From contig JABANN010000064.1 of the NCBI GenBank assembly GCA_013115125.1, positions 1-64,000 on the forward strand: a stretch of 64,000 bases of DNA, in the 5' to 3' direction. Below the pieces are notes generated by a model. It was given only the letters and a program-made list of their open reading frames with translations. It was not told the DNA's origin and made no database searches. Shown here piece after piece: positions 8,021 through 36,905 of this stretch. Both the position numbers and the translations under genes were made by a program. The DNA is from Perkinsus olseni. Its lineage: Eukaryota. Positions within the stretch are counted from its first letter, which is position 1, and the number at the start of each line of letters is the position of its first letter.

Positions 8021-10495
8021 ATGATCTCATCGGAGAATATCAGCCGGCCCCTCTACGGGACGCTGTTCGCATTCGCTGGAGATGAAAGCATGGCTGCCTG
8101 CTGGGGCTCGGTAGTGCGGGAGGCGCTGGTATTTCTCGTGGGACCGCTGTGCTATCCATAGCACGCGCCTTCTGTGATTTCCTGCTCTTCTTCGCTCCGC
8201 TGCGTCCCGTGTCAGGCCACGTCTGGAGTAGCACCAGTGGAGGGGCCACTCAGGTAGTACCATAGTAAACTTACGTAAAGTGGTGGTATGGGAGCCTGCC
8301 TACCTCTGGGATAGAATTTGCCGGAGATTCCCTCAATACCGGGCTCGTTCAGGACGGCAACCGAGTGCCGAGGAGATGGTTCAGTGATGCGAGTCCCTTC
8401 ATGTTGCGAGGCGATGCAGAGGAGCGGCGGCCGATGTAGGCTGCTGGGGCAACAAGGGGCAGCCGTCGATTCTCCGGGCTGTAGTATTGGAAGAGCGACC
8501 AATGCGGGCGGCTCTGGCCGGCCTGTGCTGTCATCATCCCATCGTCATGCAGATCGAGGTGGAGGGGGATCACGCTGGAGATGATCAGCTTACCAGAGAG
8601 GTACGTCCTCGCTTCGATCGCCTCGGAGTGTGGCCGTCCAGGAGCAGCAATTTTGGCTGGGACTATTGATCTTGGAGAGCGCTGCCTCCAGCATTGGCCG
8701 TGGCGCTATGACCTTCGACACGCAGGATCGGCCGTTGTTCAATATGGAGGAAGTTTCGACCAGTGGAAGATACTCGTCAAGTCGGGCTACCGTTGCCTTG
8801 TCCAGCTCGACAGGGCTCTCCATGGACTGGCCAGAATTCCATAACGGTGTGGCCTTTGGCCTAGCCGTGAGACCGCCGCGAGGGAGGAGGCCGGATAGGG
8901 AGTGGTTTGTCCGTAATATGCGCTGGAAGAGGGCTTCGGATGATTCCTGTTTTCGGAGGGCCGGTCTTCTGATGGGCCTAGGCCTGCACGGCTATATGAC
9001 ACCTGATGTCTTCCGTCCTGATGACTGGTTGGTGGAAATTGGCATGGGTAACTGCGCCTCGATATGCGCTGTGCTTCTGGGCGTCGGGGCTTCCAATATA
9101 GGATCGAGGGACCTCAAAGCCTGTAGACTGTGTTACCTTCATACTCCGGCCCTGTCAGGGCAGGTGGACCAGTCGGCAGGTAGTTCTACTCAAACCCTTG
9201 TGCAGTGCTGTGGCGTGGTCGCCTTGGGCTTACTGCACTACAAGTCCGCTCATGTTACGCTGGCCACCACTGTATTGAAGAACCTGCGTGACCTTGGTAG
9301 CATCACCGGCGGCTCGGACGAGTGTGGGGTCGGCCTTCGACCAGCCTATGGAGTGTCACTCGGAGTAGCCTTCGCTCTGGCATACGCTGACAAGCCCTTG
9401 CCTCGCAATTTGGAAGATGCGCTCATGGCGTGTACGAAGAATATCGATAGTTCTGTGCCGGCTTCCATCGCCTTGGGTCTTCTGTACTACGGCAGGGGCG
9501 ACTCCCGTGTTTTGGAGGTGCTGCAGTTGCCTCGTACCCGACATCAGCTCTGTCGTAGGAGGCCGAACTGTTGGTTTGCGGTTGCTGTGGCTCACACTAT
9601 GGTGCAAGGGGAATTGCCTGACCTGCCCTCCTTCGTCGGTGGATGCAGGGAGAAGTATAGAGCTACCGCAGGAGAGTCGAGTCCTTTCGTAGAGGCTGAG
9701 GCAGCACTGTATATGGAGGCGGGCTGCATGCTAGGCCTGGCGTTGTCCAATATGGGTAGCGATGATCTCGGGGTTCAAGATCGGATACTGGCTGCTCTGG
9801 AGAGGATGCTCAGGATGGAGAGCTGGCAGGTGGTAGCGATCCGATCGAATAGGACGAGCATTCCTAAGATTGGGCCAACAACGGTGGCTAGATCAAGCGT
9901 GATCTTCAGGAAGGCATGCCGAGTGTCACGTCCTTTGGAGCGATAACGAGCCATCCCCCGGATGACTGTGGACCCGACAGCAAGACCCTGCTTACTTGCA
10001 GGTAGTTGAGGGCTTCTTCATGCTCCCTTCTCGATCCCTCCTCAGGCTCAGCGTCTTGTTGTCAGCTGCGACTGTCATGGCCGGCAGCGGTTGTCCTCGT
10101 GTATCAGCCTTTATCGATCGAGTGCGGCAGAAGGTGCGGCTGCTACGTCCTCGATGAGGGCCATGAGTCAGAGTTTCAGGTTTTTGAGAGTACTCATACT
10201 CCAGCAGCAGAATTTGAGTCCGTCTATGGCATACACCAAGCACTCCATCTAGCCACTGGCCTGCTCCATCTGGGCTGGGGTCGCTGCAAGTTGAAGAACA
10301 ATACTCTCGGGAGGGCAGCCATGCTTCTAGCACTCTGGCCCGGCTACAGACATGACGTCAGCGATATGAAGTGGGCATCTACTACTCGGGGTTGCTGCCG
10401 TAGCGTGTATTGGGTGTATGGTGGCCCTCGGCAGATACCACGTCCAAGTGTTCCGACACTTGTACTGTCTAGCGGTTGAGAGAAGGGCCCGTTAG
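8021..10495 (+). CDS. APC1: Anaphase-promoting complex subunit 1 (PC-repeat core; start approximate)
   Basis: LAVQEQ...SIGRGAMTF, WPEFHNGVAFGL, AGLLMGLGLHG, HQALHLATGLLHLGWG, and YHVQVFRHLYCLAVE followed by TAG at 10493-10495. Confidence 0.82.
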
Positions 10496-16760: not shown

Positions 16761-17259
16761 TGATTAGTTCCGTACGGGCCCCCTTATCACCGCCGTCACC
16801 TCCCCCCCCCTGTATCGAGGGAAGAACTAGAAGAACTTCCAGCCCTGGCTCAGGTGTATCAATGGACGGTACCTGCGTGTCTGATGATGATGATTGAAGA
16901 GGATAGGCGGCAACGTAACATGTATAGTGCAATGAATAGTACAATTCACGTTCAATGCCCCGTATGAAGCAAATTTCTGCACTATAGGTTAGTCTGTTGT
17001 TGAGGCTGTTTGTTGCTCACTAACATCTCGGAGGAAAACACTGAGACTTGCGTTTGACACAGGGACGATGTCTTCATCGACAGCCGAAGGCAGAAGCAGG
17101 AAGGCTGATCATCATTTTCAGGGCGTGCGCTTTTTGCATTTCTTACAACGCTATCGTCCTCGTTTGTTCATCTAGCGTTAGTTCCATTGCGTTGCTCTCC
17201 TCATACGTACGACCATCGCTGACGAATAGGTTTTTTACCCCCTTCTTGCCTCTTCCTTC

Positions 17260-18597
17260 ATGTCCAAAAGAAGTGATAGATCTTCCGAAGAATTGCAGAC
17301 GTTGGAACCCGACGCGTCGGATTCTTCTGTAACGGAAGCAGACAAAGACGCCGTCAGCAAAGTTCCCGCTGCCACTGCGGCCGAGCAGATGGTCCGCAAA
17401 ACTTATGTGTTTTGCTTCGTCTGCACTACAGTGTGCGGGTTTATCAACAATACTGGCTACAACTTCGTCTTTACAGTTTCCCAAGATCTGGCTAAACAAT
17501 TCCATCATGAAGATGCTATGTCTTCATTCAGTATGGTCTTGTTGGCTGCTTGTTTCGGCATGACGATATTGCACTCTAAGTTCTTTCTGCACTTTCCATT
17601 TTTGGTGAGAATCGCGGCCTGTTTAGTCCTCCAGACGTTTGCGTATGTTCTTCTTGCGATTGCCTGTAAGATGACTAATGACAATATCGGTTTTGGCCTG
17701 TCATTGGCTGGAGCAGTCTGCACTGGCTTCTCTCAAGCACTAGGTGAAGTGCTCAACTTGAGTCAGCTGCATCACTTACCACCAAGCTTGGTCGGTGGCT
17801 GGGGCCTTGGTACGGGTCTTTCTGGTATCTTCGCTCCTCTCATTTACATGCTCTTCCTCAATGTCTTCCATTGGTCAAGGTTTGTCATCATGTTGGTGAT
17901 GAACATACTGACACCTATTTACTTTGGCGCATTCTTCTACATCAATCGTCAAGCTAACAAGAGGACCGTTAAGGGAGCGAAGGATGATGAGACGTCGCAC
18001 TCAGCCGAGCTCAACTTGAAGTCCTTGATAGGCGTTTGCAAGTACGCAGGGTTCATCATTTTCAACTTGGTCGCCGTGTATTTCCTGGAGTACTTTATTC
18101 AATCTGGTTTTATGGATAGGGCTTCGATCAATGTGGATACAGTTCACTCCTCCTATGTTGCAGCTAACTCGTATGAGATGATGTTGATCGGGTATAACAT
18201 TGGTGTCACCATCTCGAGGTCATCTGTCACCTTCTTCCGTATCAAGCGGGTTTGGATACCTACTGTCCTGCAAGCCTGTAACGCCATCTTTTGGGGCTTT
18301 GAGGCTACTACCCACTTCATCAGGAATGGTCTTGGTTTGACCGGTTTCTATCTCTATATACCCTTAGCTGCCATTATTGGTCTGATGGGCGGATTGTCTT
18401 ACGTCAATTGTATGTACCAGATTCAGCAAAATGAGGACATCCCCACCGATCTTCGACAGCTGGCGGTTAACCTATGTTTTGCCTCGTCTAACATTGGTAT
18501 TGTACTGGCAAGTGGTTTGGACTTGTGGCTTGCCAATACAGCCTTGAGTCAATGCAACATCTACGATTGCAGTAAACCACCGCAGATTTACAATTGA
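17260..18597 (+). CDS. CLN3: CLN3/Btn1 (battenin) family lysosomal membrane protein, intronless, 445 aa
   Basis: NNTGYNFVFTVSQDL, GWGLGTGLSG, VYFLEYFIQSG, YNIGVTISRSS, GLMGGLSYVN; multiple TM segments. Confidence 0.9.
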   Translation: MSKRSDRSSEELQTLEPDASDSSVTEADKDAVSKVPAATAAEQMVRKTYVFCFVCTTVCGFINNTGYNFVFTVSQDLAKQFHHEDAMSSFSMVLLAACFGMTILHSKFFLHFPFLVRIAACLVLQTFAYVLLAIACKMTNDNIGFGLSLAGAVCTGFSQALGEVLNLSQLHHLPPSLVGGWGLGTGLSGIFAPLIYMLFLNVFHWSRFVIMLVMNILTPIYFGAFFYINRQANKRTVKGAKDDETSHSAELNLKSLIGVCKYAGFIIFNLVAVYFLEYFIQSGFMDRASINVDTVHSSYVAANSYEMMLIGYNIGVTISRSSVTFFRIKRVWIPTVLQACNAIFWGFEATTHFIRNGLGLTGFYLYIPLAAIIGLMGGLSYVNCMYQIQQNEDIPTDLRQLAVNLCFASSNIGIVLASGLDLWLANTALSQCNIYDCSKPPQIYN

Positions 18598-23642: not shown

Positions 23643-25946
23643 ATGTTTTACAAGTCTACCAGGGGAAAGGACACCCACGTTTCTTTCGTGGATGCGGTAA
23701 GTGGCGGAGTTTCCAACCTTACGACGTCAATAACATCCCCACAGGTGCTTCAAGGTCTGGGCAGTGATGGCGGCCTCCTTATCCCCGAGCAAGTTCCAAA
23801 GATCACGCCGCAGGTAGGCTTCCGGGCCCCCGCTTGATCTCCATTCATTCCGTCAGGAGTGGGAGGAGTGGAGGTCACTGTCGTACAGGCCTTTGGCGTG
23901 TCGTGTCCTGAGAAAGTTCATCTCACCCACGGAGATATCGGATGGGGAGCTACAGAAGCAGGACTACAGCTCGTCGCCTGGGTGGTGTGGACTGATCTCT
24001 CAGGCTTGTGGAGGACGCCTACGGCAATTTTCGAGATCACGAGCTCACTCCTGTGAAGCGAGTGGGCGAACAATATGTATGTGGCATCAAGGGCGGCCTT
24101 GAAGCAGCGTCAGTGTTGCCCATCAGGTTCTGGAACTCTTTCATGGGCCTACCTTCGCCTTCAAGGACTTGGCCCTTCAACTACTCGGCCCCCTCTTCGA
24201 GCTTTGTCTCGAACGCAAGCATAGTAGGGTCTCGTTCAGAGAGTACCGACTTGGAGGTGTGGCACCTCAGAGCAGCTGCTCATACTGGGTGCAACTTCTG
24301 GTGACACGGGCAGCGCCGCGATAGCTGGTGTGAAGGGGAGGAAGAATATTAGGTGTAAATCGCCTTCAGCGGAGGTCCTACAGACACATTCTTGCAAAGG
24401 TGTCATCCTCTACCCGCATGGCCGCACGTCGAAGATTCAGGAGCTGCAGATGACCACTACGGCAGACGAGAACATCCACTGTTTGGCCGTCAAAGGGGTG
24501 GGCATCGCGCGGCTTCTTCACTGCAGCGTGTCTTTGGCATCCCGATTAGAACTTCGACGACTGCCAGAATATTGTGAAGGGTATTATGAACAGTCCGCTG
24601 AAGGAGGAGCTGAGTATAGGCGCGGTGAACTCTATCAACTGGGCCCGCATACTAGCCCAGATAGTGTAACGTGTGGAGAATAAGATGGACTCAAGTCATC
24701 CGGACAGGATAGGTATTACGCCTACGCCACAGCGAGGATACAAGAAAAGGAAAACTGCAGTCTGGTGGATTTCGTGGTCCCAACTGGGAATTTCGGGGAC
24801 ATTCTGGCCGGGTATCGTCCTCCGTAACGCATCTGGCTTTCTTCGTCCGGATCCTTTCTGCGGTTATCAGCTACTACTGCCGTATGATGGGAGCACCGAT
24901 CGGCCGTCTCGTCATAGCGTCCAATCAGAATGACATTCTACCAAGGTTTTTTGAGGTGGGTTCTTCCTATTCAATTCATCCATGGCCCCATCGTTGATGC
25001 TTTTCAGACGGGCACGTATTCTTACCATGATGAAGTCCGACCCAGCCTCTCTCCAAGCATGGATATCGCAGTAAGCCGTTCGTCCTCCGCAGACCGCGTT
25101 TCCCGCCAGGACTGCCGAATTGACAGAGTGTCCTGCAGATATCATCCAACTTCGAGAGGTTCCTCTACTATCTCTTCGGGGGAGACACCAAGCGTCTTAA
25201 TGAAAAAATTCAGGATTTGAAAACCAAGAAAGCGTGGGATATACTCCTTTCTCATAGATGTTTCTGGGATTCCCCGGCATCAGGTTCTCCGTGACCTGCG
25301 AAGAGCTCGACAGGGCGCGCCAGGAATTTGCCGCTTATTGTGTGGATGAGGTAGCCTTAGTATATCAGAAGGGACCGAGAGGATTCGTGTGCCAGGAAAG
25401 CACGAAAAAATGTGTCGCCAAGGTCTTCCGCGATGCCGGATACCTCCTCTGTCCACACTCGTAAGTGACCCTTCACTTGAACTGCCACGATGTTGTTTGT
25501 TGATCATCAGTGCGGTTGGTTATGCTGCTGGCGAACAGTTCCTGCTCCATCGCACTTCTTCTAAGAACCCCGTTGTGGCTTTGGCCACTGCCCATGTGGC
25601 TAAGTTCGTCGAGGTGGACGATCCTTCTTCGTGTGTCTGTCATGCTATGTGAGTCGTCATCATGCTTTCAGCCACTTCAAGCGAGTTACAGGGAGAAGGG
25701 TGGTGCTTCACCAGAGCTCATGAAGGCTCTCTCGAGTTGTATGCCGGGAGAACTCCAACGCTTGTAGGAACCTCAAGGTCACCAGAATGGGGATTCGTTG
25801 TCTTCAGGTACAATCTTCCGAGTAGACGCACGGTGATCGAGAATGATGTTGAGGATGTCAAACAGTACCTGCTGCGGAACTTCTCCGAAGGCGGCCGCTG
25901 TTGTGGAGGTCAGCATGAAGGGGGTTGTCCCACCTCCCACGTTTGA
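23643..25946 (+). CDS. thrC: Threonine synthase (PLP-dependent), multi-exon
   Basis: YKSTRG, GLGSDGGLLIP, LELFHGPTFAFKDLALQ (PLP lysine), GDTGSAA, QELQMTT, FDDCQNIVK, NSINWARILAQ, VPTGNFGDILAG. Confidence 0.95.
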
Positions 25947-27012
25947 AGTGTTCGCCAGGTTTCGGTGCTGCTGCGGGTATCGCAGTCTTGGCTGTCGCCA
26001 TTGGCGCGATAGTGATGATGAAAAGGAAACAGTAGACCATGAGATAGAGCCATTGATTTTTCTGTTTTCACAGTATGAGTGTGTCGTTACAATGGGTGGC
26101 GCCCAAGTTCGGTAACTCCGGATGCTCCAAGTGCGAATGCTGTTATCAACGATGATTGAAAATCATTAGTAATGGATATTGCCATCATCGTTCGTAGAGC
26201 CAGTGAGGCAGGCGGCGCCTATGAGGCGCTGAGGTAAGCGGCAAACGACTCGTTGTAGAGATCACCTCTCCGCTGGGAGACGCTAAGCAGAGTACACTTG
26301 CTTGGCCAGTTCGATTTGTAATCCACAACTGAGCCGCCGGGAGTCTGTTGCATCTGGTGGGGCATCGGAATAGAGTGTGTTTTTTTGGAGGGAGAAAGTA
26401 GACACAGGGTACTTACCGAGGGTGACAAAGTTTGCATTCTCAGAACTGATACGTTCATCTGAGCAGAAATTCCAATGTAAATACTCCTCTGCAGCACGGG
26501 CCTCGTAACGCGGTCCCTTCTACTGTTGCCATGGAGCGGCCATCAATTCGACTATCGCCTTTCCGCGAGACACATCAACAGTTGATGATCAACTGTACTC
26601 AAACTGTACTCCTCGATCACTCAGAGATTATCGTACGGAGCGAACAAGCTCGTTATGGTGAATGTCAAGAATTGAGATTTCTCCGTTATTACGAAGCTTT
26701 TACATGTCTAACTTGGAGGTTTTATGTATTCTAAAATGAGAAATCAATCGTATTCAATTTATTGTGTGCGATGTATAAAAACGCGGAATGAATAGACAAG
26801 AGTCAGCGCCAGAATAGACCCTAAGCAGGATCTTTTCGCTGAACGACGTAACAACAAGGCCAAAGACAATACTCATTACCTCCTGACACTGCTGGTAACG
26901 TAGAGCTATAAATGATGCTTCGACTCAGATGTTACAAAGACCACAGAAAAGAATATCAATGTTACTGACGAAACATGTACATCATGTAGGAGAGGAGGTC
27001 ACGTCGTGACCG

Positions 27013-28380
27013 TCACGAATCGAATATAACTCCATATGCACGGATGCCGTTCTTTTCGAGACCCCGCGTAACCTCTCGAGTAGCCTTCATATTAGAAATG
27101 AATACCACAGCTTCGAAGCTTCCATGTTCCCACAGATTCCTCGCCACTTGGACTAGATCCGGACGACCCAACTTCTGTGTGTCGTGGATGATGGCCGTGG
27201 GGTCCATTCTCCGGATGGTAGTCATGATCGCTGAGCCGTAGGTCTCCAAAGGTGCTCGAGCGGACCATACGATCTTCACTGGGTGGCTTGGCTGTTCTAC
27301 GAAGAGACTTAGACAAGGCCCTATACCAGAGCCAGTGGCCATGACTATACATGGCCTGAAGAGCTTCACCACTCGAACCGTCCCGAACTGTGGAAGTCCT
27401 CGCGTCCAGATCCTACTCGGCGGGTTATCAATAATTCGGCCTGACCAGTCCCCCGCGCGAGAGATAATGATAGAGAAACCTTTCTGATCCACATGCCAGA
27501 CCTTCTTCTCTTCCTCGCTCAGGCCCGCAATGGAGCTTCGAATATTCGGTATCACCGCAAATGCATGCGTCTCGCGCAGAGGTGAGTCAGTGACTCGAAT
27601 AGCCTGTCCGAATGATACAATTCTATGTCCAAAGTTGAGGACGAGCGCGTGGGAGGAGAGTCGCCGGCACTCAACCACACGCTTCCTCAGATGTAACCAG
27701 GGAAAAATAACAAAACCGGTGATGAGAGAGACCTCCCACACACGGACATCAGAAAGAAAAAGTTTCCAGAAATTCGAATGGGACAGTAAAGCATCTTCTC
27801 TAACTGCCAGCATGAGCTGCATCCAGAATATCAAGAGAAGTGCCCAGGCACAGTAGCGATGCACGCGTTCGAAACAGTTGTGGTGCAGCCTGCGCATAAA
27901 TGGCAGGGCGAAGAGTATGATCAAGACCATTGAAGAGAGTACGAAACACGAGCTCAAGATGCGCATGCTAGTAGCACTATCCTTCTGGTACAGTTTGATG
28001 ATGAGGGCAACGTACCAAATCAGCGCTGCCGAAGCAGAGGCCCTGTGGATGGCTCCATAATAACAATAAACTCGTCCGAATTGTCTTCTTATCGACAGCG
28101 GGAGGTGAGTAGACTTATCGACGAATAGCACGAAGAGCGAGTTAACGAAATACTCATTTCTCGTTACGACTGTGGGTAGCAGGTACGTCGTGACCGCTAC
28201 CGAACTTGTGTAGACACCAGGCTGCAGAAATATTTCTACCAGAGCGAAGATCAAAATGTTCAGAACAGCTACGGGGAAGAAAACTCTGCGAAATGGCGTG
28301 AAGTGCCCCTTCATGGCGCGCGGTTTACGAGAAGGATGGAGGGGCATGCGGGAAATGGTACCTGAAATAATATGTGGCAA
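27013..28380 (-). CDS. TmpA-like membrane flavoprotein (ferric-reductase-like TM region + FAD/NAD(P)-binding domain), intronless copy A; ATG start probably ~28347
   Basis: ~6 TM segments, HHNCFERVHRYCAW, ETHAFAVIP, AGDWSGRII, MATGSGIGPCLS, VVFISN, C-terminal AYGVIFDS. Confidence 0.8.
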   Translation of the reverse strand: MPHIISGTISRMPLHPSRKPRAMKGHFTPFRRVFFPVAVLNILIFALVEIFLQPGVYTSSVAVTTYLLPTVVTRNEYFVNSLFVLFVDKSTHLPLSIRRQFGRVYCYYGAIHRASASAALIWYVALIIKLYQKDSATSMRILSSCFVLSSMVLIILFALPFMRRLHHNCFERVHRYCAWALLLIFWMQLMLAVREDALLSHSNFWKLFLSDVRVWEVSLITGFVIFPWLHLRKRVVECRRLSSHALVLNFGHRIVSFGQAIRVTDSPLRETHAFAVIPNIRSSIAGLSEEEKKVWHVDQKGFSIIISRAGDWSGRIIDNPPSRIWTRGLPQFGTVRVVKLFRPCIVMATGSGIGPCLSLFVEQPSHPVKIVWSARAPLETYGSAIMTTIRRMDPTAIIHDTQKLGRPDLVQVARNLWEHGSFEAVVFISNMKATREVTRGLEKNGIRAYGVIFDS

Positions 28381-29204
28381 TCTCCTTGAAAAAGTGTGGA
28401 CGCTTCATTTAGAACGACGCTATCCTGTGACTGAGACTCTGAACGGTTCACTTTGCTTTAGTGCGGATTGGTCATTGGCGTAGGGTCCAATGCGTTGAAC
28501 ACCCGGGCTCATGGGGAGCACGGGAGGGAGATAGAAAAATGGCGCGACCTACAGCGTTCAACGCGACGCTCATGTATGCGCGCAAGTGATCGACCAAACA
28601 AGGACGTCCGACGAATCAAAAGCTTTTTGATCTCACGGTACGCAGCAGTCGGTGTAGGATACCGTGAGCGCCCTCGTTCGTAGCAGTGTCGAATCCTGGT
28701 GTCCCACTCAACGTGGGCCACGCTGACAGGCCGCTGTAAGATCGAGCTGCTATCATACGACTGCAACTTTTGCATGGACTTCTCAACTTCATTCTCCTTA
28801 AGCAGCGAATCGCTGTGTGATAGAAGGATGATCCTTCAAGGAACTCCCTGCCCCGGGTGGACAGCCTTTGTAACTATGGCAGCTCAATAGCTCGCCACAT
28901 TGTTATGTGTAGATCGACTCCCTTTGACCATCATCATTAGATACCCATGGGCTGTTGTGCAGCACAGGGCAGTAAAAGTTGTGCAGCCTGTGCGAAGTAG
29001 ACAGTAATTGACGGGCGCCAAAGACTTGAGCGTAGCCGATATGTATATGCGTCAAATGATCGGTTTCAGTTAGAATCGTTCAAGGCATATTGTTGATACT
29101 CCTGGCAACCTCGTTGGGCGCAACTCGAGTATTATCTTGTATATGTATTGGGCCTTTAGGATTGTGTTACCAGAGTTATTATCATCGACTACCTAAAGTA
29201 TCAA

Positions 29205-30201
29205 TCAACGAGTCGTTGACAACGACCCGGTCACGACTTGGAGTATACGTCCGCGATCGGTTGATATTGTCCGTGCGTGCAGAGCATATTCCTCTTCAGA
29301 GCACTTTGCGGCTCGGACTTTCTTTGTTGCGTCACATCTTGGATTGATGATGGAAAATGTAAGGAACGTAACTAGAAGGCCGAAAAGTCTGGTATTCTCA
29401 GCATTGTTTCTCTTCATTGCCTCTTCAAAAATGCGATCAGCATAGCTGTACGCAAAGTTTGGAGCCTTTCCTGCGGACACAGCGTCGCCGAAGCTGCATG
29501 AGACATACGGAATCTTCGCCGAGGGGACGTATCCTGTCGCGAGTGGCGAGGAAATGTATGTGAAGGAGAAGCGGCGTCCAGTTCAGCTGTAGAGCCACAG
29601 GTAACAGCCGAGAAAGTTGCACACTTCGCCCAAGCATTGTGTCTGATGAAGTTCATCAAGCCTTGAAAGCGTACGTGCAGGGAGATATCACGACGTGACG
29701 TATGGAATTGCTGGCGTAAATGGCCGCCATTCAATGGCGTAGAATATACCTGACGGACTATCTTGCGGGATTCCCAAAACTGTACGTCGGAAAATTCAAC
29801 GAAGTTCGAAGGCTTCGGAAGCTTTTTTGAAGGGCTCCCCATTGATACTGTGGTGGAGACGAGATTCTGGGGTGCCGTTCTTTTCTTACATGAAGCCGAA
29901 GAAACCGATGATACGAGGACTTCCTCCATCACAATGCAGTGACTGCATGAGTCGCAAGGGTGAACCTGCCATCCACGTTTGAATCAGAGTCATCAGACCA
30001 AGATCTGTGAACAATCTCGAAGGCCTCCCTGCAATCTTCCGTAAGCGCCAAACGCTGTTCAACCACTCCACCGCGATCAAGCGGTTCCTTCAACAGACCG
30101 CAGTTCGGGAAGAAGGGAAGCTGGTTCCGCGAATTACGGGACACATGATAGTGTGTCATATCCTCTGAGATTATTTGGATAACTAGCAACGTGTCACTCA
30201 A
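29205..30201 (-). CDS. Hypothetical (possibly degenerate) gene between the TmpA-like paralogues
   Basis: Chain of overlapping minus-strand ORFs (29929-30201, 29414-29932, 29205-29480) that could be joined by short introns. No recognisable domain. Confidence 0.3.
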
Positions 30202-31023
30202 AGGTGCACCAACAGTATGACCGAATTAAGACAACTCAGGACTCTTTGCCGTCGAAGTATACAGAGGTTCTAGGATTATCATCATACCCATCATGGATAT
30301 GATGATGATAAAGTGGATACTACAGTAGAGCCAAAGCAACTCTAACGGCGTCAACAACAGTTGAAGTTGTTGAATAACTTGGATAAAACGAGCTCGACCC
30401 AGTCCACTAGTTTGACGTTAGAAGATATTAGAACGCAATCGGGGACTAGAGTAACATAACAAAATCGCAGCAACTTTCCGTTGGTCGCTACATGATGTAG
30501 CGACCAACGGAAAGATGCCTACATCATTTGCGACACAACCTTTCTCAATTTTTGACGGGAGCGGCCCACTTCCCTGACTCACCCCCCTGCAACGCGACAT
30601 TCCATCTGTTAGGTTTGCTCTATGGGAAGCAAAAGCGTACGTTAACGTACGGAGGAGCTCGAACCACAGATTGGTGGCGGCAGGAAAAAAATCTTGGAAT
30701 CTTGCGAGCCACAGGTTGTGCTTTCTTTGCCGCTCTGAAATTTTCATATGAGAAGACGTAGTACACTAGGTGTACTGAATAGAAAAAAGTTCACACGGCA
30801 CCACATCTTGACAGATCGCGATACGATCGGCTCAAATGACATGATAATAAAAGGAGAGCTGGTACCACTCATGAGAAGAAAAATTTGAAAGGGACTTTAA
30901 GGTAACAAATTCCAAGACTATGTGAAAGACCATACAGGACATAAATACATGATACATTTTAGACCACGAATAACAGCAAGTAGATGCTACTCACGAAACA
31001 TTTATATCATGTAGGAGAGGAGG

Positions 31024-32334
31024 TCACGAATCGAATATAACTCCATATGCACGGATGCCGTTCTTTTCGAGACCCCGCGTAACCTCTCGAGTAGCCTTCA
31101 TATTAGAAATGAATACCACAGCTTCGAAGCTTCCATGTTCCCACAGATTCCTCGCCACTTGGACTAGATCCGGACGACCCAACTTCTGTGTGTCGTGGAT
31201 GATGGCCGTGGGGTCCATTCTCCGGATGGTAGTCATGATCGCTGAGCCGTAGGTCTCCAAAGGTGCTCGAGCGGACCATACGATCTTCACTGGGTGGCTT
31301 GGCTGTTCTACGAAGAGACTTAGACAAGGCCCTATACCAGAGCCAGTGGCCATGACTATACATGGCCTGAAGAGCTTCACCACTCGAACCGTCCCGAGCT
31401 GTGGAAGTCCTCGCGTCCAGATCCTACTCGGCGGGTTATCAATAATTCGGCCTGACCAGTCCCCCGCGCGAGAGATAATGATAGAGAAACCTTTCTGATC
31501 CACATGCCAGACCTTCTTCTCTTCCTCGCTCAGGCCCGCAATGGAGCTTCGAATATTCGGTATCACCGCAAATGCATGCGTCTCGCGCAGAGGTGAGTCA
31601 GTGACTCGAATAGCCTGTCCGAATGATACAATTCTATGTCCAAAGTTGAGGACGAGCGCGTGGGAGGAGAGTCGCCGGCACTCAACCACACGCTTCCTCA
31701 GATGTAACCAGGGAAAAATAACAAAACCGGTGATGAGAGAGACCTCCCACACACGGACATCAGAAAGAAAAAGTTTCCAGAAATTCATATGCGACAGTAA
31801 AGCATCTTCTCTAACTGTCAGTATCAGCTGCATCCAGAATATTAACAGAAGTGCCCAAGCACAGTAGCGATGCACGCATTCGAAACAGTTGTGGTGCAGC
31901 CTGCGCATGAATGGCAGGGCGAAGAGTATGATCAAGACCATTGAAGAGAGTACGAAGCACGAGGTCGAAGTTTCTATTCTAGTCGAGACATCCTTCTGAA
32001 TCAGTTTGATGGTGAGGGCCAAGTGCCACATAAGCGCTGCGAAAGCAAAGCTACTGTGGAGAGCCCCGTGATAGCAGTAAACCCTTGCGAAGTGTCTCCT
32101 CAGCGGCAGTGACAGGTGTGTGGACTTGTCAACGAACACGGCGAAAAGCGAGTTAACGAAATACTCATTCCTAGTCACGACTGTGAGCAGCAAGTACGTC
32201 GTGACAGCAACAGAACTCGTATGAACGCCTGGATGAAGAAAGATTTCTAGTAGAGCGAACACTGCGGTGTTCAGAACGAGATTGGACAAGAAAACTCGGT
32301 GGTATGTTGAGGAGTGCCACTTGATGGGGGACAT
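31024..32334 (-). CDS. TmpA-like membrane flavoprotein, intronless copy B (436 aa)
   Basis: Same motifs as copy A; C-terminal ~254 aa identical except one F/L difference. Confidence 0.82.
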   Translation of the reverse strand: MSPIKWHSSTYHRVFLSNLVLNTAVFALLEIFLHPGVHTSSVAVTTYLLLTVVTRNEYFVNSLFAVFVDKSTHLSLPLRRHFARVYCYHGALHSSFAFAALMWHLALTIKLIQKDVSTRIETSTSCFVLSSMVLIILFALPFMRRLHHNCFECVHRYCAWALLLIFWMQLILTVREDALLSHMNFWKLFLSDVRVWEVSLITGFVIFPWLHLRKRVVECRRLSSHALVLNFGHRIVSFGQAIRVTDSPLRETHAFAVIPNIRSSIAGLSEEEKKVWHVDQKGFSIIISRAGDWSGRIIDNPPSRIWTRGLPQLGTVRVVKLFRPCIVMATGSGIGPCLSLFVEQPSHPVKIVWSARAPLETYGSAIMTTIRRMDPTAIIHDTQKLGRPDLVQVARNLWEHGSFEAVVFISNMKATREVTRGLEKNGIRAYGVIFDS

Positions 32335-32771
32335 GCCGATAATGGTGATTCAAAACTCCTGAGAGAGGCTCATCGTGTCTAGTGTTACAACCCACTCAGT
32401 GTGATCCTGACCTGAACTTCAATTGAGCGTGCCCGCGTTCACGCTCCGTCGTCGGCGCTAGCGTCGGGAGGGTGACGGGCTCCACTATTCTTGGAAACCA
32501 TGAAACGGCAGGTTCATAGCAGCGTCGAACCTGAGCTTCATGGCCCGAGTCGGGTCACCTGACGATTCCTTCTTGTGAGTTTTCACGAATCCCTATCCAG
32601 TTACGCGCAACAGTGGCCCTATCAAGGCGTCATGGATCGTGGTGCGGGCATCATACGAATTCCAACGAACATGTGTTACGCTCCGTCGGTTTTAAGCATG
32701 TAGAGTAGCCCCAGCATTAGCTTTATTTAATATTTGGCCTTGCGTTTCGCGTGTGAGGAAGAATGCTACTA

Positions 32772-32826
32772 CAACTTGACATGACCCAAGGAGTGCAAGT
32801 TGCACTCCTTGGGTCATGTCAAGTTG
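32772..32826. repeat. Perfect inverted repeat: 27-bp arms with a 1-nt spacer
   Basis: caacttgacatgacccaaggagtgcaa-g-ttgcactccttgggtcatgtcaagttg. Confidence 0.97.
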
Positions 32827-33670
32827 CACTGTGCAACCTCAAGGCCAACGGCGCAGTCCCCGGGGACAGCGCACGGCGAGCGTGATGCGCTTCGCTCCGC
32901 TCTGCTCGAGACTAGACACTTCCTACATGGATCTAGATGGCTCTAGATGACGGAGTACGTCTCTTCCACGCCGCTTTGCAAACCTCGTTCGGCGCGGAGT
33001 GACCAAGCGCAGGCTGTCACGCAGGTAATAGCGGACTGAACAAGCGCGAGCTGTTAGCCACCTTTATAACCGGCCCGAGAAGAGAGAAAAGAGGGATAGC
33101 AAGGGCAGGTCAGAATCGCGGATGAGGACGGGGAAAAGAGCAACCCGAAACCCTGAGAAGCCCGTAGGGCAACCAGACACCCGATGACTGTTATACAAGG
33201 CCGTACCTTCATCCTAGACGCCGGGGATGGGGCAGGTATTGACCAAACCCCTGCGGAATCTTTCAGCGGGACCCCTATAACATCTTTAATATCATGCGAA
33301 ATGTGCAAGACCGCAGTATTTCGTTGGCGGTCTCAAGTTTCGGTTGTGAACATATCCAGTTTCCTACGGCCTCCATTCGCTTCACGCGCTGGACATGTAC
33401 TTCGAGTGTCAGCATCTGGTTTGCTCGGTTACAGAGACCTCGAGCGATCTGCGGACCTCTTTACAATGTCGTGGATGACTAAGGTAGCGTGATAACTGTC
33501 GTTGGCGGCTGTTGTTTCGTTGTTGTTCATCCGTACCCCGACCCGGTCAGAAACAAAACTTTGATGAGTATTGAGTAGAAAATAGTTCGAGAATGGTAGC
33601 TCTGCCACTACGCTCGCCGCAATACAGTGCGATTGCTATCAGAAAAAAAAGGGTGCATAACGAATAATCG

Positions 33671-34233
33671 TTAGTAGATGCCGCCGGCTGCTGGAGGAGG
33701 ACCGCCGTCAGTTTCATCCTTGTCACCGGGGTAATCTTCATGGCGCGACTTCCGAGGCTTCTCTGTCAACGCACGATTCCTTCTACCTGAATTGTGCGAA
33801 TCACAGACACAGCAATCGCGGCGTCCGTCACCCTGGAGGTAGAGGTATCCCCAAATGAACAATAGAACCATGAGGAAGACCCCGAAGGGAGATACCGGCA
33901 GGAGGGAGGATGAGCTGCTTGAAGTCTGCAAGGCATCGCTGTCACCAGAGCTGATGTCACTGTAGGTGCCCTGGTTATCTGAAAAGAGTATAGCGCGAGT
34001 CGCGAGGCACGACAGAAAACTCGGACTGCAGGTCGGTAGAAACTAAACGTTATATCAGCTCTTACCGACGAAATAGCAGAATGCGGTAGGGATTAGTAAA
34101 ACAAAAGCACCATGCGCTGTTCAACCGCATTGCAACAGACTTACTCAAGTTCCCCAACGCATTAGCGAGGCTGCCTCCCTGACTGCGAACCCACTCGCAT
34201 AGGTCTTCCCAAGGATTGCCTTCGCCCGGCATG
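33671..34233 (-). CDS. Hypothetical small single-pass membrane protein
   Basis: PFGVFLMVLLFIWGYLYL TM segment and charged tail after a ttttcag acceptor (~33980); possible first exon MPGEGNPWEDL. Confidence 0.3.
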
Positions 34234-34458
34234 ATTCGGCGCAAAAACGGGTAAAAATCGGCGAAATAACTGAGCCTAGCATGCAGAAGCAGGCAACAAG
34301 GTTCCCTCCCAACAGCTCCTGAACGCAGGAGCCCTACACCGCCTCCATTTCATGCCACTCCCCCGAGCCCTGTTATAGTTACCAAACACGAGGCAGCAGC
34401 AGCACCCGAGGTATAGCGAAACAACGGTAATGTACGTTCGGCGATACTTGTGGACATC

Positions 34459-36905
34459 TTAATCCAGATCCCCGAGATCGATGTCCTGAGGCATTCCACA
34501 CTCATACGGCCGCCGAAGCCGGAGGCACTACTTCTTCACTCTGTTGCACCTCCCCTTCTGTTCGTGCACGCTTTGGCTCGGGCGGTGTCTCCGACGAAGT
34601 GGGAGCCGCGTCGTCGAAGAACACAACACCGCTTTCTGTGCAGATCTCCGACGTCTCCAAGCCACTGAAGGGTGAGATGTTGATCAACACTCAGGTTGGG
34701 TATTGCCCTACTGTGCATTGAGCCTGCCGTCCGCCCCTAGTGCTCCACCGGTTATCTCAAAACCACCAAGACCAGCCGCGGGGCCAGCGGCTTCCGCTGC
34801 TCCCAAAACCTGACAATGAAGATGACGAGATGACACCCACCGCGACGCGGACCAGGCCTACATCCTCCGTTCCAAGGAGGCCCATGAGCCACTGTCGCTG
34901 CCGATGAGCAGCGACACTGCCCGGCTTGTCCACCTCGCTCGAGACGAAGTTGTCGGGAATCTCGTACTCGGCGCCGGCCTTCATCACATCATCGTTGGCC
35001 TCCAGAGAATCCCGGACCTGCTAGACACCGCAGTAGAGCTGGCTGACCTCAACATGTTACCTTTTCAATGTCCTCCTCTGTTGGGCGCTTGATAGTCCCC
35101 GTCCAGCGGTCTCTAGTGAGAGGGACAGACTCGTTGTTCACGGCCAGCAGGGCAAGCCACTAATGGGGAAGCGAAGCATAAATCAAGAGGAGCACTCCTA
35201 CGCCTACCTCGAGATCGAATTGCAGGGGGACCCGTTTGCGTTGAGCAGTGGCCTGGCGAAAAGCAAGGAGTCATGTCTTCTGGGAGAAAGTGTTGTCAAC
35301 CTCCCTTACCTCTCTCGCCTCGTCGGTCATTCCCTTTCCTTGCAAGCTGTGGGTCCACAACTGCCCCGTCTGAAACGGGATCGCAATCTCCAGGCCGTCC
35401 GGTGAACCTCCGACGGGCGAGTGGAGACCCCACCATCAATTACCTTCACATCTATCGTAATGACCTGCATGTAACCCAACGACCCCTGCCGTCGCGGTAC
35501 ACACTTATCAAGCGCAATGAAGCGTGTAAGCGAGGCTGGCCGATCCTGAGTGGCCTCGTGAGGCACCAGCGCAGTGTACTTGGCGTGCATATGACCACTG
35601 AGTAAGGAGACAATAGGGCAAGGCGAATCGAACCAGACGACCCAACCTGAACCAATAGTCTGGCCTCAGCTTCCCCATGAGGTCCATGGAGTGGGCATTG
35701 CCCATTTCACCCCTACTGATCTCCTGTCTCATGGTACCTGAGTAGCCCTGCCGCCGCCGGCTACGGTCCCTCTCCCCCCTACCCGTTCTGTCCTTAACTC
35801 GTAATAAGGTGTCAGTATCGCCGTAGTCAGTGATACCAGTGGGCCAGTCGTGGCTCACAACTATTCGTACAGGGTCGACCTCCATTGCGCTCGTGTTGTC
35901 TGCCTAGACTCGCGACTGGCGATAGCATACCGATCGACGGGCACCTCCTCACCAGTGCAGCAAGCTTCTCCATCTCATACTTCCTTGCATGGTAGGCCGA
36001 GCGTTTGGTGTCCTCCGTGTAAGGCGCCACCTCGTAGTGGCCTAGGTCGTAATGGTACCCCTTATAGATACCACTGAAGCCACCTATTCGGACTCCTTTA
36101 CAGCGAACAACCTGAAGAGGCCGAAAATGTGAGGACATTAGACAGTGGAACGCAGCCAAGCCGTTCGGCCCGAACGGGACTGTGAATTCCGTGGCGCAGT
36201 GAAGGTACGCGGCTCATCATCGGCATCGGACCGGGAAGCCACGATTCCCAGGGATCGAGAAGCACCATCCGAAATGCTAGCCCATAGTGAGGTAGAGGAG
36301 CTCACCCCAGAATGCCCCAGGTAGTAGATCCCCTTGGCCGCCCAACCTCCATAGTATCTGCCGGAAATAAGGCTCGATACATCTTGAGAAGCGACCACAG
36401 ATTACAGCTCCCTGAGATGAGACGGGGCCTCGTGGTTGCCGCCAACGAATACCGTAGTAACGGGAGCTGACTTCTCGCCCTTCCAGTAACGGTGAAAGTC
36501 CTGCAACCCACAACGTGTCAATTTCGCGATCGCTCCTCTCTGTCGCATTGTACTTTCATATGGCGATGCTTCGCTGGAGCTGCCAGTTCATTGAGCTCGG
36601 CCTCAGTACCTGAGCCAGGCTCTGTAGGCCCCGAGGGAGCGATCACCGTACGAATGGCTTGGAAGTCTCCGCAGCAGATGAGCAGGTCCACAGGCGGTGT
36701 ATTCTTCGTTCGTTCAAGATGCTCGATAGCCTGGCAAACCAATATCAGCCTAATGAGAAAGATACCACGCCCGACGCACTTCGTAGATTCTATCCAAGTC
36801 GCCGTGAGCGCATCCCTCTACTGCAATGGTAAGGTGACGAGCTGGGTCATACTGAGGTGGAGGTGATTGTGCTGAGGAGGAAGGAGAAGGCGGCTGGTGA
36901 CTCAT
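34459..36905 (-). CDS. DBR1: RNA lariat debranching enzyme
   Basis: [88 protein letters not shown]. Confidence 0.93.

Follow-up and report, generated by a model that had tools for sequence, protein, structure and literature searches.

A tandem pair of TmpA-family genes in the alveolate parasite Perkinsus olseni, most likely acquired long ago from an ascomycete fungus

The TmpA family and the Perkinsus gene pair

A plasma-membrane location and a developmental-signal role have been described for TmpA in Aspergillus nidulans only, where the protein belongs to an AfeA-TmpA pathway (PMC4804170; cited papers are referred to here by their available text). In the TmpA/TmpL literature GSGIGP has been named as the NAD(P) motif, and flavin binding has been demonstrated for a TmpL fragment only (PMC2766074). 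A. nidulans TmpA (AN0055) and the ascomycete stand-alone TmpA proteins (PF26733, 03009_C) have the same organization as the Perkinsus proteins described here, that is, a stand-alone arrangement of six transmembrane (TM) helices and an FAD/NAD(P) part with GSGIGP. The Perkinsus genes differ from them in their alveolate host, in forming a tandem array with conversion, and in having neither the long N-terminal extension nor an adjoining AfeA-like or cognate adenylation gene. A. nidulans TmpA was not found by name among the matches, and the likeness to AN0055 is one at family level. TmpL, TmpB and NPS12, as well as the bacterial operons made up of adenylation, TmpA and crotonase genes, contain this C-terminal module too, at 32-39% identity and with identical invariant residues, but the Perkinsus proteins lack the N-terminal adenylation domain and form a separate clade in the trees. 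No paper joining 'TmpA' and 'Perkinsus', nor any title on the broader themes, was found among non-subscription papers, and TmpA-family genes in Perkinsus are apparently so far unreported.

The window, i.e. the whole stretch of 64,000 nucleotides of P. olseni DNA that was analysed, carries two such genes:

27013..28347, minus strand: copy 1 (P0001), 444 aa, 6-TM and FAD/NAD(P)-binding, predicted inner-heme positions His101 and His163
31024..32334, minus strand: copy 2 (P0002), 436 aa, predicted inner-heme positions His93 and His155, RNA unspliced over 31024-32217

As the first-pass annotation had stated, both ORFs of about 1.3 kb are uninterrupted, and HAFA, AGDW, ATGSGIGP (which contains the GSGIGP motif) and a terminal YGVIFDS are present in both. 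The TmpA-family assignment made there was borne out as well: PF26733 was found on 120/120 listed relatives (best 120 of 313), with no best matches outside the family, and is precomputed on the public P. olseni protein P0003, which is 97% identical to the copy 1 type. The Atlas cosine to clusters named 'Integral membrane protein TmpA' was 0.97 (232/256 features). The FAD motif RLHFD proposed for TmpA/TmpL reads VLNFG in the Perkinsus copies and KLNF in the nearest fungi, and HAFA aligns with the HPF stretch of NOX proteins. No family match was obtained for the ORF proteins in an NCBIfam search, no significant match in the PDB by sequence (one protein as query), and no relative among 18 pattern matches in viral contigs.

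The P0003 model gives copy 1 a 76-nt GT-AG intron near its 5′ end. We prefer the intron-free reading, because two further public models of the copy 1 type (P0125 and P0128), both of 444 aa, have the N-terminus of the unspliced reading. Public annotation already includes TmpA-type proteins of Perkinsus, one of which bears the automatic name TmpA. The assertion that almost all other genes of the window are riddled with introns holds for the spliced genes to the right of the pair, but not for three further uninterrupted frames of 344-455 codons:

8585-9946: uninterrupted frame, no Pfam match
17230-18597: uninterrupted frame, CLN3 (Pfam)
59977-61011: uninterrupted frame, MFS (Pfam)

Local context, transcription and 3′ homogenisation

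The pair lies at a convergent strand switch, as previously proposed, with threonine synthase on the plus strand at the left and spliced minus-strand genes (CT..AC joints) at the right:

24103..24321, plus strand: exon-bearing frame of threonine synthase, the gene on the left flank, which extends to ~26050 (E 1.2e-8 to 1kl7)
33277..34271, minus strand: right flanking gene of three exons, with splicing seen in 4/4 RNA data sets
34414..36817 (ends approximate), minus strand: next gene rightward, multi-exon, RNA lariat debranching enzyme match (E 0.06)

The sign of the AT skew changes from negative to positive near 26 kb, the switch being located at the left edge of the island (~26.1-26.9 kb), so that copies 1 and 2 form the end of the minus-strand run. 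Pfam gave no match for the right flanking gene in the frames tried, nor for the short flanking exons. The gene at 34414..36817 probably encodes RNA lariat debranching enzyme, judging from the weak match and from sequence motifs that we take to be those of this enzyme. The description of the region as an AT-rich island is correct in that its GC content is 49.2% against 52.9% and 53.8% in the flanks, within the lowest 3.4% of equal-size sliding windows, but other stretches of the window are nearly as low (48.7% at 16.5-20.5 kb and 49.8% at 50-55 kb). The comparison with the flanks that had been suggested also showed host-like GC3, with values of 0.57-0.58 for the two ORFs and 0.53-0.64 for eight further long frames in the window, the coding status of some of which is unproven.

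Three dispersed host repeats and two palindromes were identified in and beside the island:

28980..29248, no strand assigned: host dispersed repeat, family 1, matched at 67-83% on 14 other contigs
30207..30477, no strand assigned: host dispersed repeat, family 2, on 9 other contigs, resembling the end of a larger element with an RRM-containing frame
30470..30518, no strand assigned: near-perfect palindrome, 24-nt arms
32772..32826, no strand assigned: perfect palindrome, 27-nt arms
32873..32967, no strand assigned: host dispersed repeat, family 3, on 15 other contigs

Long palindromes like the one at 32772..32826 occur in 2/9 other repeat-bearing loci. Since no terminal repeats or target duplications bracketing the gene pair were found in the island, the sequence gives no sign that the repeats and palindromes served as a delivery vehicle for the gene.

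Copy 2 was represented in 4/4 data sets, each of which also showed spliced flanking genes; they come from four studies, none of them flagged as the source of the present DNA. The data sets, none of which is recorded as RNA, were taken as RNA on the basis of these spliced joints. One contig (X7 record 18) covers 30269-32217 unspliced, with further pieces in X10 and X11; coverage of copy 2 stops at 32217, the first 39 codons lying outside it. Shallow intergenic contigs in X7 mean that some DNA carry-over is possible in that data set, and contig depths were not used for ranking genes. The contigs of the four data sets do not extend over the copy-1-specific part, but as contigs show presence and not absence, nothing follows about silence of copy 1.

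The duplicated unit (26959-28316 versus 30984-32327) is 90.6% identical over 1360 columns, and the similarity is concentrated at the 3′ end:

27013..27775, minus strand: homogenised 3′ tract of copy 1 (763 nt), with a single difference to 31024-31786
31024..31786, minus strand: homogenised 3′ tract of copy 2, counterpart of 27013..27775
30269..31023, minus strand (inferred): 3′ flank of copy 2, transcribed according to RNA contigs, probable 3′ UTR

The duplication had been regarded as recent, which fits the near identity of the last 763 nt but not the 5′ thirds, between which dS is ~0.93; dN/dS between the 5′ parts is ~0.23. Judged by this divergence, copies 1 and 2 are old paralogues with a homogenised 3′ half, the homogenisation being likely due to gene conversion or unequal crossing-over. 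After the gene had been acquired, P. olseni and P. chesapeaki would each have duplicated it in tandem independently, and 3′ halves may still be passing between the P. olseni copies.

A tract of 763 nt with one difference could also have arisen from collapsed reads of one copy, the more so as the independent data confirm the haplotype of copy 2 only and not that of copy 1. We give this a small chance, since an RNA contig runs with 0 mismatched letters from the unique 3′ flank through the homogenised tract into the copy-2-specific 5′ part, and since other public P. olseni copies are a patchwork of common 3′ variants, the pattern expected from concerted evolution. The stronger version, in which the whole island would be a contaminant or an assembly chimera, is hardly credible, with host repeats inside the island and the gene present in three Perkinsus species. 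Together, the host repeats between the copies, the host-like GC3 and the unspliced copy 2 in four spliced-RNA data sets indicate that both ORFs are native Perkinsus genes and that contamination is unlikely.

Distribution and origin

Homologues are 84-97% identical within P. olseni, and those of P. chesapeaki show 53% and (partial) 64% identity. P. marinus has an 82-aa fragment, 69% identical to the P. chesapeaki protein, which was too short and was excluded from all trees. The next relatives among the matches listed are Sordariomycete fungi (34-46%), the nearest named proteins coming from Paramyrothecium, Colletotrichum, Thozetella and other Sordariomycetes. The 63 matches next by score (P0006-P0068; best 120 of 313) belong to one clade, whose named members are Sordariomycetes and one basidiomycete. 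A match from Carpinus fangiana is probably fungal DNA within a plant assembly.

In a maximum-likelihood tree of 40 rows (LG+C20 PMSF), Perkinsus grouped with the 14 rows of the Sordariomycete stand-alone clade at 100/99, and a quick tree of 79 rows gave the same grouping with a support of 99. The 40-row tree and the AU tests used a subset of the 79 rows, with long-branched, redundant and two partial rows omitted. Within ascomycete paralogues, Perkinsus and the fungal clade were placed with an Aureobasidium group at 96/93. The horizontal acquisition proposed initially is therefore upheld by the position of Perkinsus with a Sordariomycete-dominated clade, with a donor side that is fungal and not actinobacterial. 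A bacterial origin might be considered from the intronless state of the gene and from the relatives present in 560 prokaryotic stretches, many of them marine. However, a grouping of Perkinsus with bacteria was rejected (p-AU 2.1e-5), bacterial relatives are less similar (32-38% identity; best 80 of 560 prokaryotic loci), and the fungal relatives are intronless as well, the whole domain lying in a single open frame in 14/15 donor-clade metagenome loci (the 15th ends at its contig end). Furthermore, the loop following HAFA, which is 25 aa in 12/12 Perkinsus rows, is at least 20 aa long in 68/69 measured rows of the fungal clade but in 0/61 measured bacteria and 0/35 measured adenylation fusions; it also occurs in 12/118 measured rows outside the fungal clade and is thus not exclusive to it. 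A bacterial source is already largely refuted, and we hold it to be very improbable.

The exact position of Perkinsus relative to the fungi is less firm. The 40-row tree nests Perkinsus inside the fungal clade (96/92 and 95/95), but monophyly of the 14 fungal rows with Perkinsus outside was not rejected (p-AU 0.18), and FastTree with 276 rows, including the best 150 of 761 matches from 1.84 billion representatives, placed Perkinsus as sister to the fungal clade (0.82). The long C-terminal segment present in 54/57 measured fungal-clade rows is absent from Perkinsus, which speaks for a donor that branched off early or for a loss. The sister position, the long Perkinsus branch and an outgroup in which 7 of 22 initially nameless non-Perkinsus proteins could be traced to an organism (6 fungi, 1 bacterium) would also suit an indirect history: a gene of old eukaryotic or alveolate descent that the sampled relatives have lost, a passage through an unsampled protist, or transfer from protist to fungi. 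We find this quite unlikely, because no named alveolate other than Perkinsus appeared among the matches listed (best 120, 26 and 38), a P. chesapeaki protein was the only initially nameless row to join the Perkinsus clade in the 276-row tree, and the clade as a whole lies among ascomycete paralogues. The check for orthologues widespread across alveolates thus yielded no named one among the matches listed.

What could not be retained is that the acquisition was recent, given homologues in three Perkinsus species, a Perkinsus stem of 1.19 changes per column and host-like GC3. The presence of homologues in P. olseni, P. chesapeaki and P. marinus places the acquisition before these species split. 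On sequence grounds, the gene was most likely acquired long ago, by the ancestor of the three species, from an ascomycete that belonged to the Sordariomycete stand-alone clade or stood next to it, and trees and indels suggest that the donor genes would already have been intronless before the transfer.

Fold, heme histidines and proposed chemistry

An AF2 model (pLDDT 95) shows six TM helices followed by an FNR-type FAD/NAD(P) domain. Its best structure matches were SpNOX (8qq7; Z 22.9, 371 residues) and human NOX2 (8gz3; Z 18.9), in agreement with Foldseek, and on this model the TmpA family is a divergent branch of the ferric-reductase/NOX superfamily. The Perkinsus proteins share with SpNOX and NOX2 the whole-length fold, FAD and NAD(P) motifs and the inner-heme His pair, but differ in lacking the outer-heme His pair, in an identity of only 13-15%, and in reading ISN where CGP, the C-terminal motif of FNR-type proteins, is expected.

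In NOX2 the cytoplasm-side heme is held by His209 and His101 (PMC3591440). In the numbering of copy 2, used from here on, His155 aligns with NOX2 His209, and His93 was assigned to His101 by topology on the model, not from a printed alignment. His93 is present in 147/147 and 79/79 rows and His155 in 146/147 and 76/79 rows. The four-histidine pattern (i and i+14 in TM3, i and i+13 in TM5) is kept only in the first member of each pair: at the outer position i+14 of His93, His occurs in just 3/147 and 1/79 rows, and at i+13 of His155 it is not among the six commonest residues. These outer positions are occupied by Leu107 and Met168 in copy 2 and by Leu115 and Met176 in copy 1. His is found at i+14 of His155 in 10/147 and 7/79 rows. 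Copy 2 also has an unconserved His104.

The earlier suggestion of a transmembrane redox system for ROS or iron is in line with the NOX/ferric-reductase-like fold, but is weakened by these histidines. In its full form, which sees in the protein a trans-membrane ferric reductase or NADPH oxidase that was acquired recently and serves to take up iron or to handle ROS, it can further draw on the only hit of a local Pfam scan, PF01794 (26.2 and 23.6 bits, below the cut-off of 28), on the ROS phenotypes of A. brassicicola and A. fumigatus TmpL mutants (PMC2766074) and on the survival of host oxidative stress by P. marinus (PMC2868825). However, electrons in NOX pass from the inner heme to the outer heme and then to O2 (PMC11564096), and retention of only the two cytoplasm-side heme His throughout the family speaks against a protein that reduces iron or exports superoxide across the membrane. 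Moreover, the Perkinsus genome encodes a separate 603-aa ferric-reductase-type protein with both His pairs (i+14, i+13), although profile comparison with it aligned the dehydrogenase part only, the TM3 His lying outside the alignment. A. nidulans tmpB mutants show no sensitivity towards oxidative stress (PMC4804170), and the acquisition was not recent. This makes a ferric reductase or NADPH oxidase improbable; an indirect effect of TmpA proteins on intracellular ROS is possible.

With no outer heme, electrons probably stay on the inner side of the membrane. NAD(P)H would bind the cytosolic FNR-type domain (ATGSGIGP) and reduce FAD (HAFA, AGDW), which would hand electrons to one cytoplasm-side b-heme held by His93 (TM3) and His155 (TM5), cofactors and chemistry alike being inferred. 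The enzyme may then more likely act at the inner leaflet on O2 or on a small lipophilic metabolite, which it would oxidise or reduce; candidates for active-site residues are His148, Glu152, Arg144 and Arg55, all of them invariant in the family. Of these, His148 and Glu152 (present in 147/147 and 79/79 rows) lie with His155 at i, i+4 and i+7 along one helix face, and align with Phe202 and Trp206 in NOX2. They might instead hold, with His93 and His155, a non-heme metal at the cytoplasmic face of a protein of the same origin, or the protein might be a heme-free flavoprotein. TmpL has been shown to bind flavin only (PMC2766074), and the word heme is absent from the available text of PMC4804170 and PMC2766074. 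We nevertheless think this option unlikely, as His93 and His155 occupy the inner-heme ligand sites of NOX2 and SpNOX in a fold matched over 371 residues.

The family appears to act together with an adenylating enzyme both in fungi, where the A. nidulans pair makes a developmental signal, and in bacteria. An AMP-binding gene was upstream or fused in 24/25 hand-picked bacterial loci, and a crotonase gene was downstream in 18/25. Pfam detected no AMP-binding match in copy 1 or 2, and the island has no long upstream frame. Fourteen AMP-binding matches were obtained in the Perkinsus genome (five of the six regions examined hold such matches), but an exon-by-exon search, with the best candidates scored, found no cognate partner, the best reaching 27-32% where cognate adenylation domains are 37-67% alike among themselves. 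In donor-clade loci, AMP-binding was found in 0/39 nearby frames, among which introns could hide one. The oxidoreductase thus seems to be used without a cognate adenylation domain in Perkinsus, and apparently in the donor clade too.

We consider it probable, with moderate confidence, that these are native, ascomycete-derived and tandem-duplicated TmpA genes of Perkinsus, with single inner-side heme chemistry and without a cognate adenylation domain. More tentatively, the ferric-reductase superfamily could have a third heme layout in TmpA, a full NOX-like flavoprotein with the cytoplasm-side heme alone and with inner-leaflet chemistry on a small metabolite. Perkinsus would have obtained this enzyme from a fungus of Sordariomycete type, multiplied it into a tandem array that undergoes conversion, and would employ it without an adenylating partner to make or alter a signal or defence metabolite. 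If so, no such fungal developmental-signal enzyme would have been seen before in an alveolate parasite. Retention and amplification of a fungus-to-alveolate transfer across a genus of mollusc parasites point to a useful function, and the transfer also suggests that perkinsids and ascomycetes were once in contact. More general than the transfer is the finding that the outer-heme His have been lost throughout the family. The available text of PMC3591440 takes the surface-side His pair to be what the superfamily conserves, with no mention of TmpA, and the loss offers a testable handle on the function of TmpA, TmpB and TmpL. The short FRD members STEAP and YedZ/MsrQ have a reduced heme-His set in which the surface-side pair is kept (PMC3591440), whereas the TmpA family keeps the cytoplasm-side pair, a mirror image of that arrangement.

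A pair of TmpA-family genes in Perkinsus olseni

Two uninterrupted ORFs on the minus strand of the window encode proteins of the TmpA family (PF26733), and the motifs listed in the first-pass annotation are present in both of them.

27013-28347, minus strand: copy 1 (protein P0001), uninterrupted ORF, 444 aa
31024-32334, minus strand: copy 2 (protein P0002), uninterrupted ORF, 436 aa

The family identity proposed there was borne out, in that PF26733 was found on 120 of the 120 matches listed (the best 120 of 313) and the ESM Atlas placed the protein with TmpA clusters (0.97). Since the top matches of the pair were P. olseni proteins at 84-97% identity, the window almost surely derives from this species, although the closest records may represent this very isolate or one close to it and do not count as independent support. 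Homologues were also identified in P. chesapeaki (two, one at 53% identity and the other a 189-aa partial protein at 64%) and, as an 82-aa fragment, in P. marinus. Searched at the protein level, the 39.9-Mb assembly yielded only the two copies of the window. In another P. olseni assembly, five locus tags of the family are clustered on one contig and a sixth lies elsewhere, which suggests either that copy number varies or that copies were collapsed in the present assembly.

The two genes are very probably native to Perkinsus rather than a contaminant. Repeats of three dispersed families sit between the two genes or next to them and have matches on 14, 9 and 15 further contigs of the assembly; of 44 repeat matches in all, 41 are to other contigs and 3 are self-matches. 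Splice joints of the flanking genes were visible in four sequencing runs from four studies, and the runs, whose type is not on record as RNA, were treated as RNA for this reason; none of them was flagged as a possible source of the assembled DNA. Copy 2 is transcribed and unspliced along most of its length, as a single 1971-nt contig of run X7 spans positions 30269-32217 with zero other letters and zero gaps, and contig pieces on copy 2 were present in runs X10, X11 and X12. These include the unique 3′ flank of copy 2 (X10 and X11) and its copy-2-specific 5′ part (X12); X11 and X12 carry another organism label, perhaps that of the host. For copy 1, one public gene model places an intron of 76 nt at the 5′ end, and two other models of the copy 1 type give 444-aa proteins, the unspliced length.

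The left neighbour of the pair is a threonine synthase gene on the plus strand and the right-hand neighbours are spliced minus-strand genes, so that the pair closes a minus-strand run and the convergent strand switch noted earlier could be located at its left edge. The AT-rich 'island' described in the same annotation is less distinct: the GC content of the pair region (49.2%) is indeed below that of the flanks (52.9% and 53.8%), but two other stretches of the window are about as GC-poor (48.7% and 49.8%). GC3 is 0.57-0.58 in both ORFs, within the range of eight other long frames (0.53-0.64). Nor does an intronless reading frame alone mark a gene of this genome as foreign, because the window holds three further uninterrupted frames of 344-455 codons and an intronless ferric-reductase-type gene (603 aa) is found on another contig.

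Several other features of the region were recorded:

8585-9946, plus strand: 453-codon uninterrupted frame, without a Pfam match up to E 1
17230-18597, plus strand: long uninterrupted frame, CLN3/battenin-like protein
33277-34271, minus strand: three-exon gene, splicing seen in 4/4 RNA data sets, the frames examined matched no family
59977-61011, plus strand: long uninterrupted frame, MFS transporter

Long near-perfect palindromes with arms of 22-27 nt adjoin dispersed repeats; two are in the window, at 30470-30518 and 32772-32826, both beginning with CAACTT, and two in other loci (L004:769-819 and L010:511-565). A 1.7-kb repeated element carrying an RRM-containing frame occurs in two loci at 93% identity (L004:1463-3165 and L012:1357-3102), and the repeat at window positions 30207-30477 is similar to its end.

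Fungal affinity and history of the pair

The first 63 matches after Perkinsus (among the 120 listed of 313) make up one clade, 34-46% identical to Perkinsus along most of the protein. Its named members comprise Sordariomycetes and one basidiomycete. Prokaryotic relatives show 32-38% identity (best 80 of 560 loci) and the adenylation fusions, i.e. TmpL/TmpB/NPS12-type proteins in which an adenylation domain is joined to the TmpA module, 34-39%. No named alveolate outside Perkinsus was among the matches listed, and the only unnamed row joining the Perkinsus branch in a 276-row tree was itself P. chesapeaki, most outgroup rows being unnamed.

In a careful tree of 40 rows, Perkinsus grouped with 14 rows of the Sordariomycete-dominated clade of stand-alone proteins (the fungal clade) with support of 100/99, and was nested within it at 96/92 and 95/95; a grouping of Perkinsus with bacteria was rejected (p-AU 2.1e-5). 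A fungal clade without Perkinsus was not rejected (p-AU 0.18) and FastTree placed Perkinsus as its sister (276 rows), so that the donor would be situated in or next to this clade. The horizontal acquisition put forward in the first-pass annotation is therefore probably right, but its 'recent' character is not, given the homologues in P. chesapeaki and P. marinus, the host-like GC3 and a Perkinsus stem of 1.19 changes per column in the 40-row tree. Overall, we consider a fungal origin of the Perkinsus genes quite likely.

The indels agree with a donor in or next to the fungal clade. A long loop after the HAFA motif is present in 12/12 Perkinsus rows and 68 of the 69 fungal-clade rows measured, and in none of 61 bacteria or 35 adenylation fusions, but also in 12 of 118 other rows; a long C-terminal segment found in 54/57 fungal-clade rows is absent from Perkinsus. 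The gene probably arrived already intronless, as the whole domain lies inside one open frame in 14 of 15 metagenome loci of the fungal clade, a set whose ranking favours intronless loci and in which some contigs may be transcripts. Bacterial NPS12 adenylation domains have been described as nesting inside fungi (Bushley and Turgeon, PMC2823734), and bacterial TmpA modules do likewise in our trees. The database protein P0050, from the basidiomycete Flagelloscypha sp., is nested in the Sordariomycete clade with Paramyrothecium (99/88), possibly owing to a second horizontal transfer of a TmpA-family gene or to mislabelled DNA.

Divergence between the two copies falls steeply along the gene, from dS ~0.93 (dN 0.21) over codons 20-135 to 0.16 over codons 136-200 and a single differing site in the last 763 nt. 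This gradient argues for an old duplication under purifying selection whose 3′ half was recently homogenised, and the earlier suggestion of a recent duplication thus fits the nearly identical 3′ part but not the older 5′ part. Among public P. olseni copies the two 5′ types stay separate and 3′ variants are shared as a patchwork, a pattern expected from gene conversion or unequal crossing-over. In P. chesapeaki the two copies cluster together (SH-aLRT 94), suggesting a separate duplication.

Proposed heme layout and putative pathway

In the predicted model (pLDDT 95, pTM 0.90), six TM helices are combined with an FNR-type domain. The best structural match is SpNOX (Z 22.9 over 371 aligned residues, rmsd 4.8), and NOX2 also matches (Z 18.9). 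In NOX2 the heme on the cytoplasmic side is expected to be bound by His101 and His209, and the one on the surface side by His115 and His222 (PMC3591440). His155 (copy 2 numbering) is aligned with NOX2 His209 and kept in 146/147 and 76/79 rows, and His93, which from the topology of the model would lie near the cytoplasmic start of TM3, in 147/147 and 79/79. At the outer positions, histidine occurs in just 3/147 and 1/79 rows at i+14 of His93, and at i+13 of His155 it does not rank among the six most frequent residues; conserved tryptophans are found in the outer half of the TM helices. The Perkinsus ferric-reductase-type protein serves as an internal control, retaining both pairs (i+14 and i+13), whereas the TmpA family has the inner pair only.

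G000:C1426 (L095:1060-2871), plus strand: 603-aa intronless ferric-reductase-type protein, all four heme histidines

STEAP and YedZ keep the surface-side pair only (PMC3591440), and the TmpA family is the mirror case. The same source lists no ferric-reductase-type domain for 18 alveolate proteomes, which makes the origin of the 603-aa protein a point of possible interest. In the proposed mechanism of the TmpA-family proteins, electrons would pass from NAD(P)H through FAD to a single inner heme. They would not be exported, and the reaction would take place at the cytoplasmic face, perhaps at His148 and Glu152, which are invariant. Trans-membrane handling of iron or ROS, as first envisaged, is probably wrong, because the outer-heme histidines are missing and a four-His protein is encoded separately. 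This family-level structural point is worth testing. The pair adds new members to an established family, in a host where they were not expected; no paper mentioning both TmpA and Perkinsus was found in the open-access literature searched.

A role in small-molecule metabolism is suggested by the setting of the family elsewhere. Of 25 bacterial loci picked by hand from 80, 24 have an adenylating enzyme upstream of the TmpA module or fused to it, and 18 have a crotonase downstream; TmpA and AfeA of A. nidulans together make a conidiation signal (PMC4804170), and flavin binding is documented for a TmpL fragment (PMC2766074). An exon-by-exon search that scored the best candidates turned up no cognate adenylation domain in the Perkinsus genome (best 27-32% identity vs 37-67% among cognates), and no adenylation gene was seen beside donor-clade loci (0/39 frames). 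A conserved three-gene block of adenylation domain, TmpA module and enoyl-CoA hydratase/crotonase occurs in diverse marine and soil bacteria (including loci L014, L027, L031 and L038), and in two Pseudomonas loci a catalase-domain gene takes the place of the crotonase downstream. Elsewhere in the Perkinsus assembly, an 851-codon uninterrupted frame of NRPS-like type on the minus strand (G000:C3240:2877-5429; L097:878-3430) combines an adenylation domain and a phosphopantetheine carrier with an unusual ankyrin-repeat tail.
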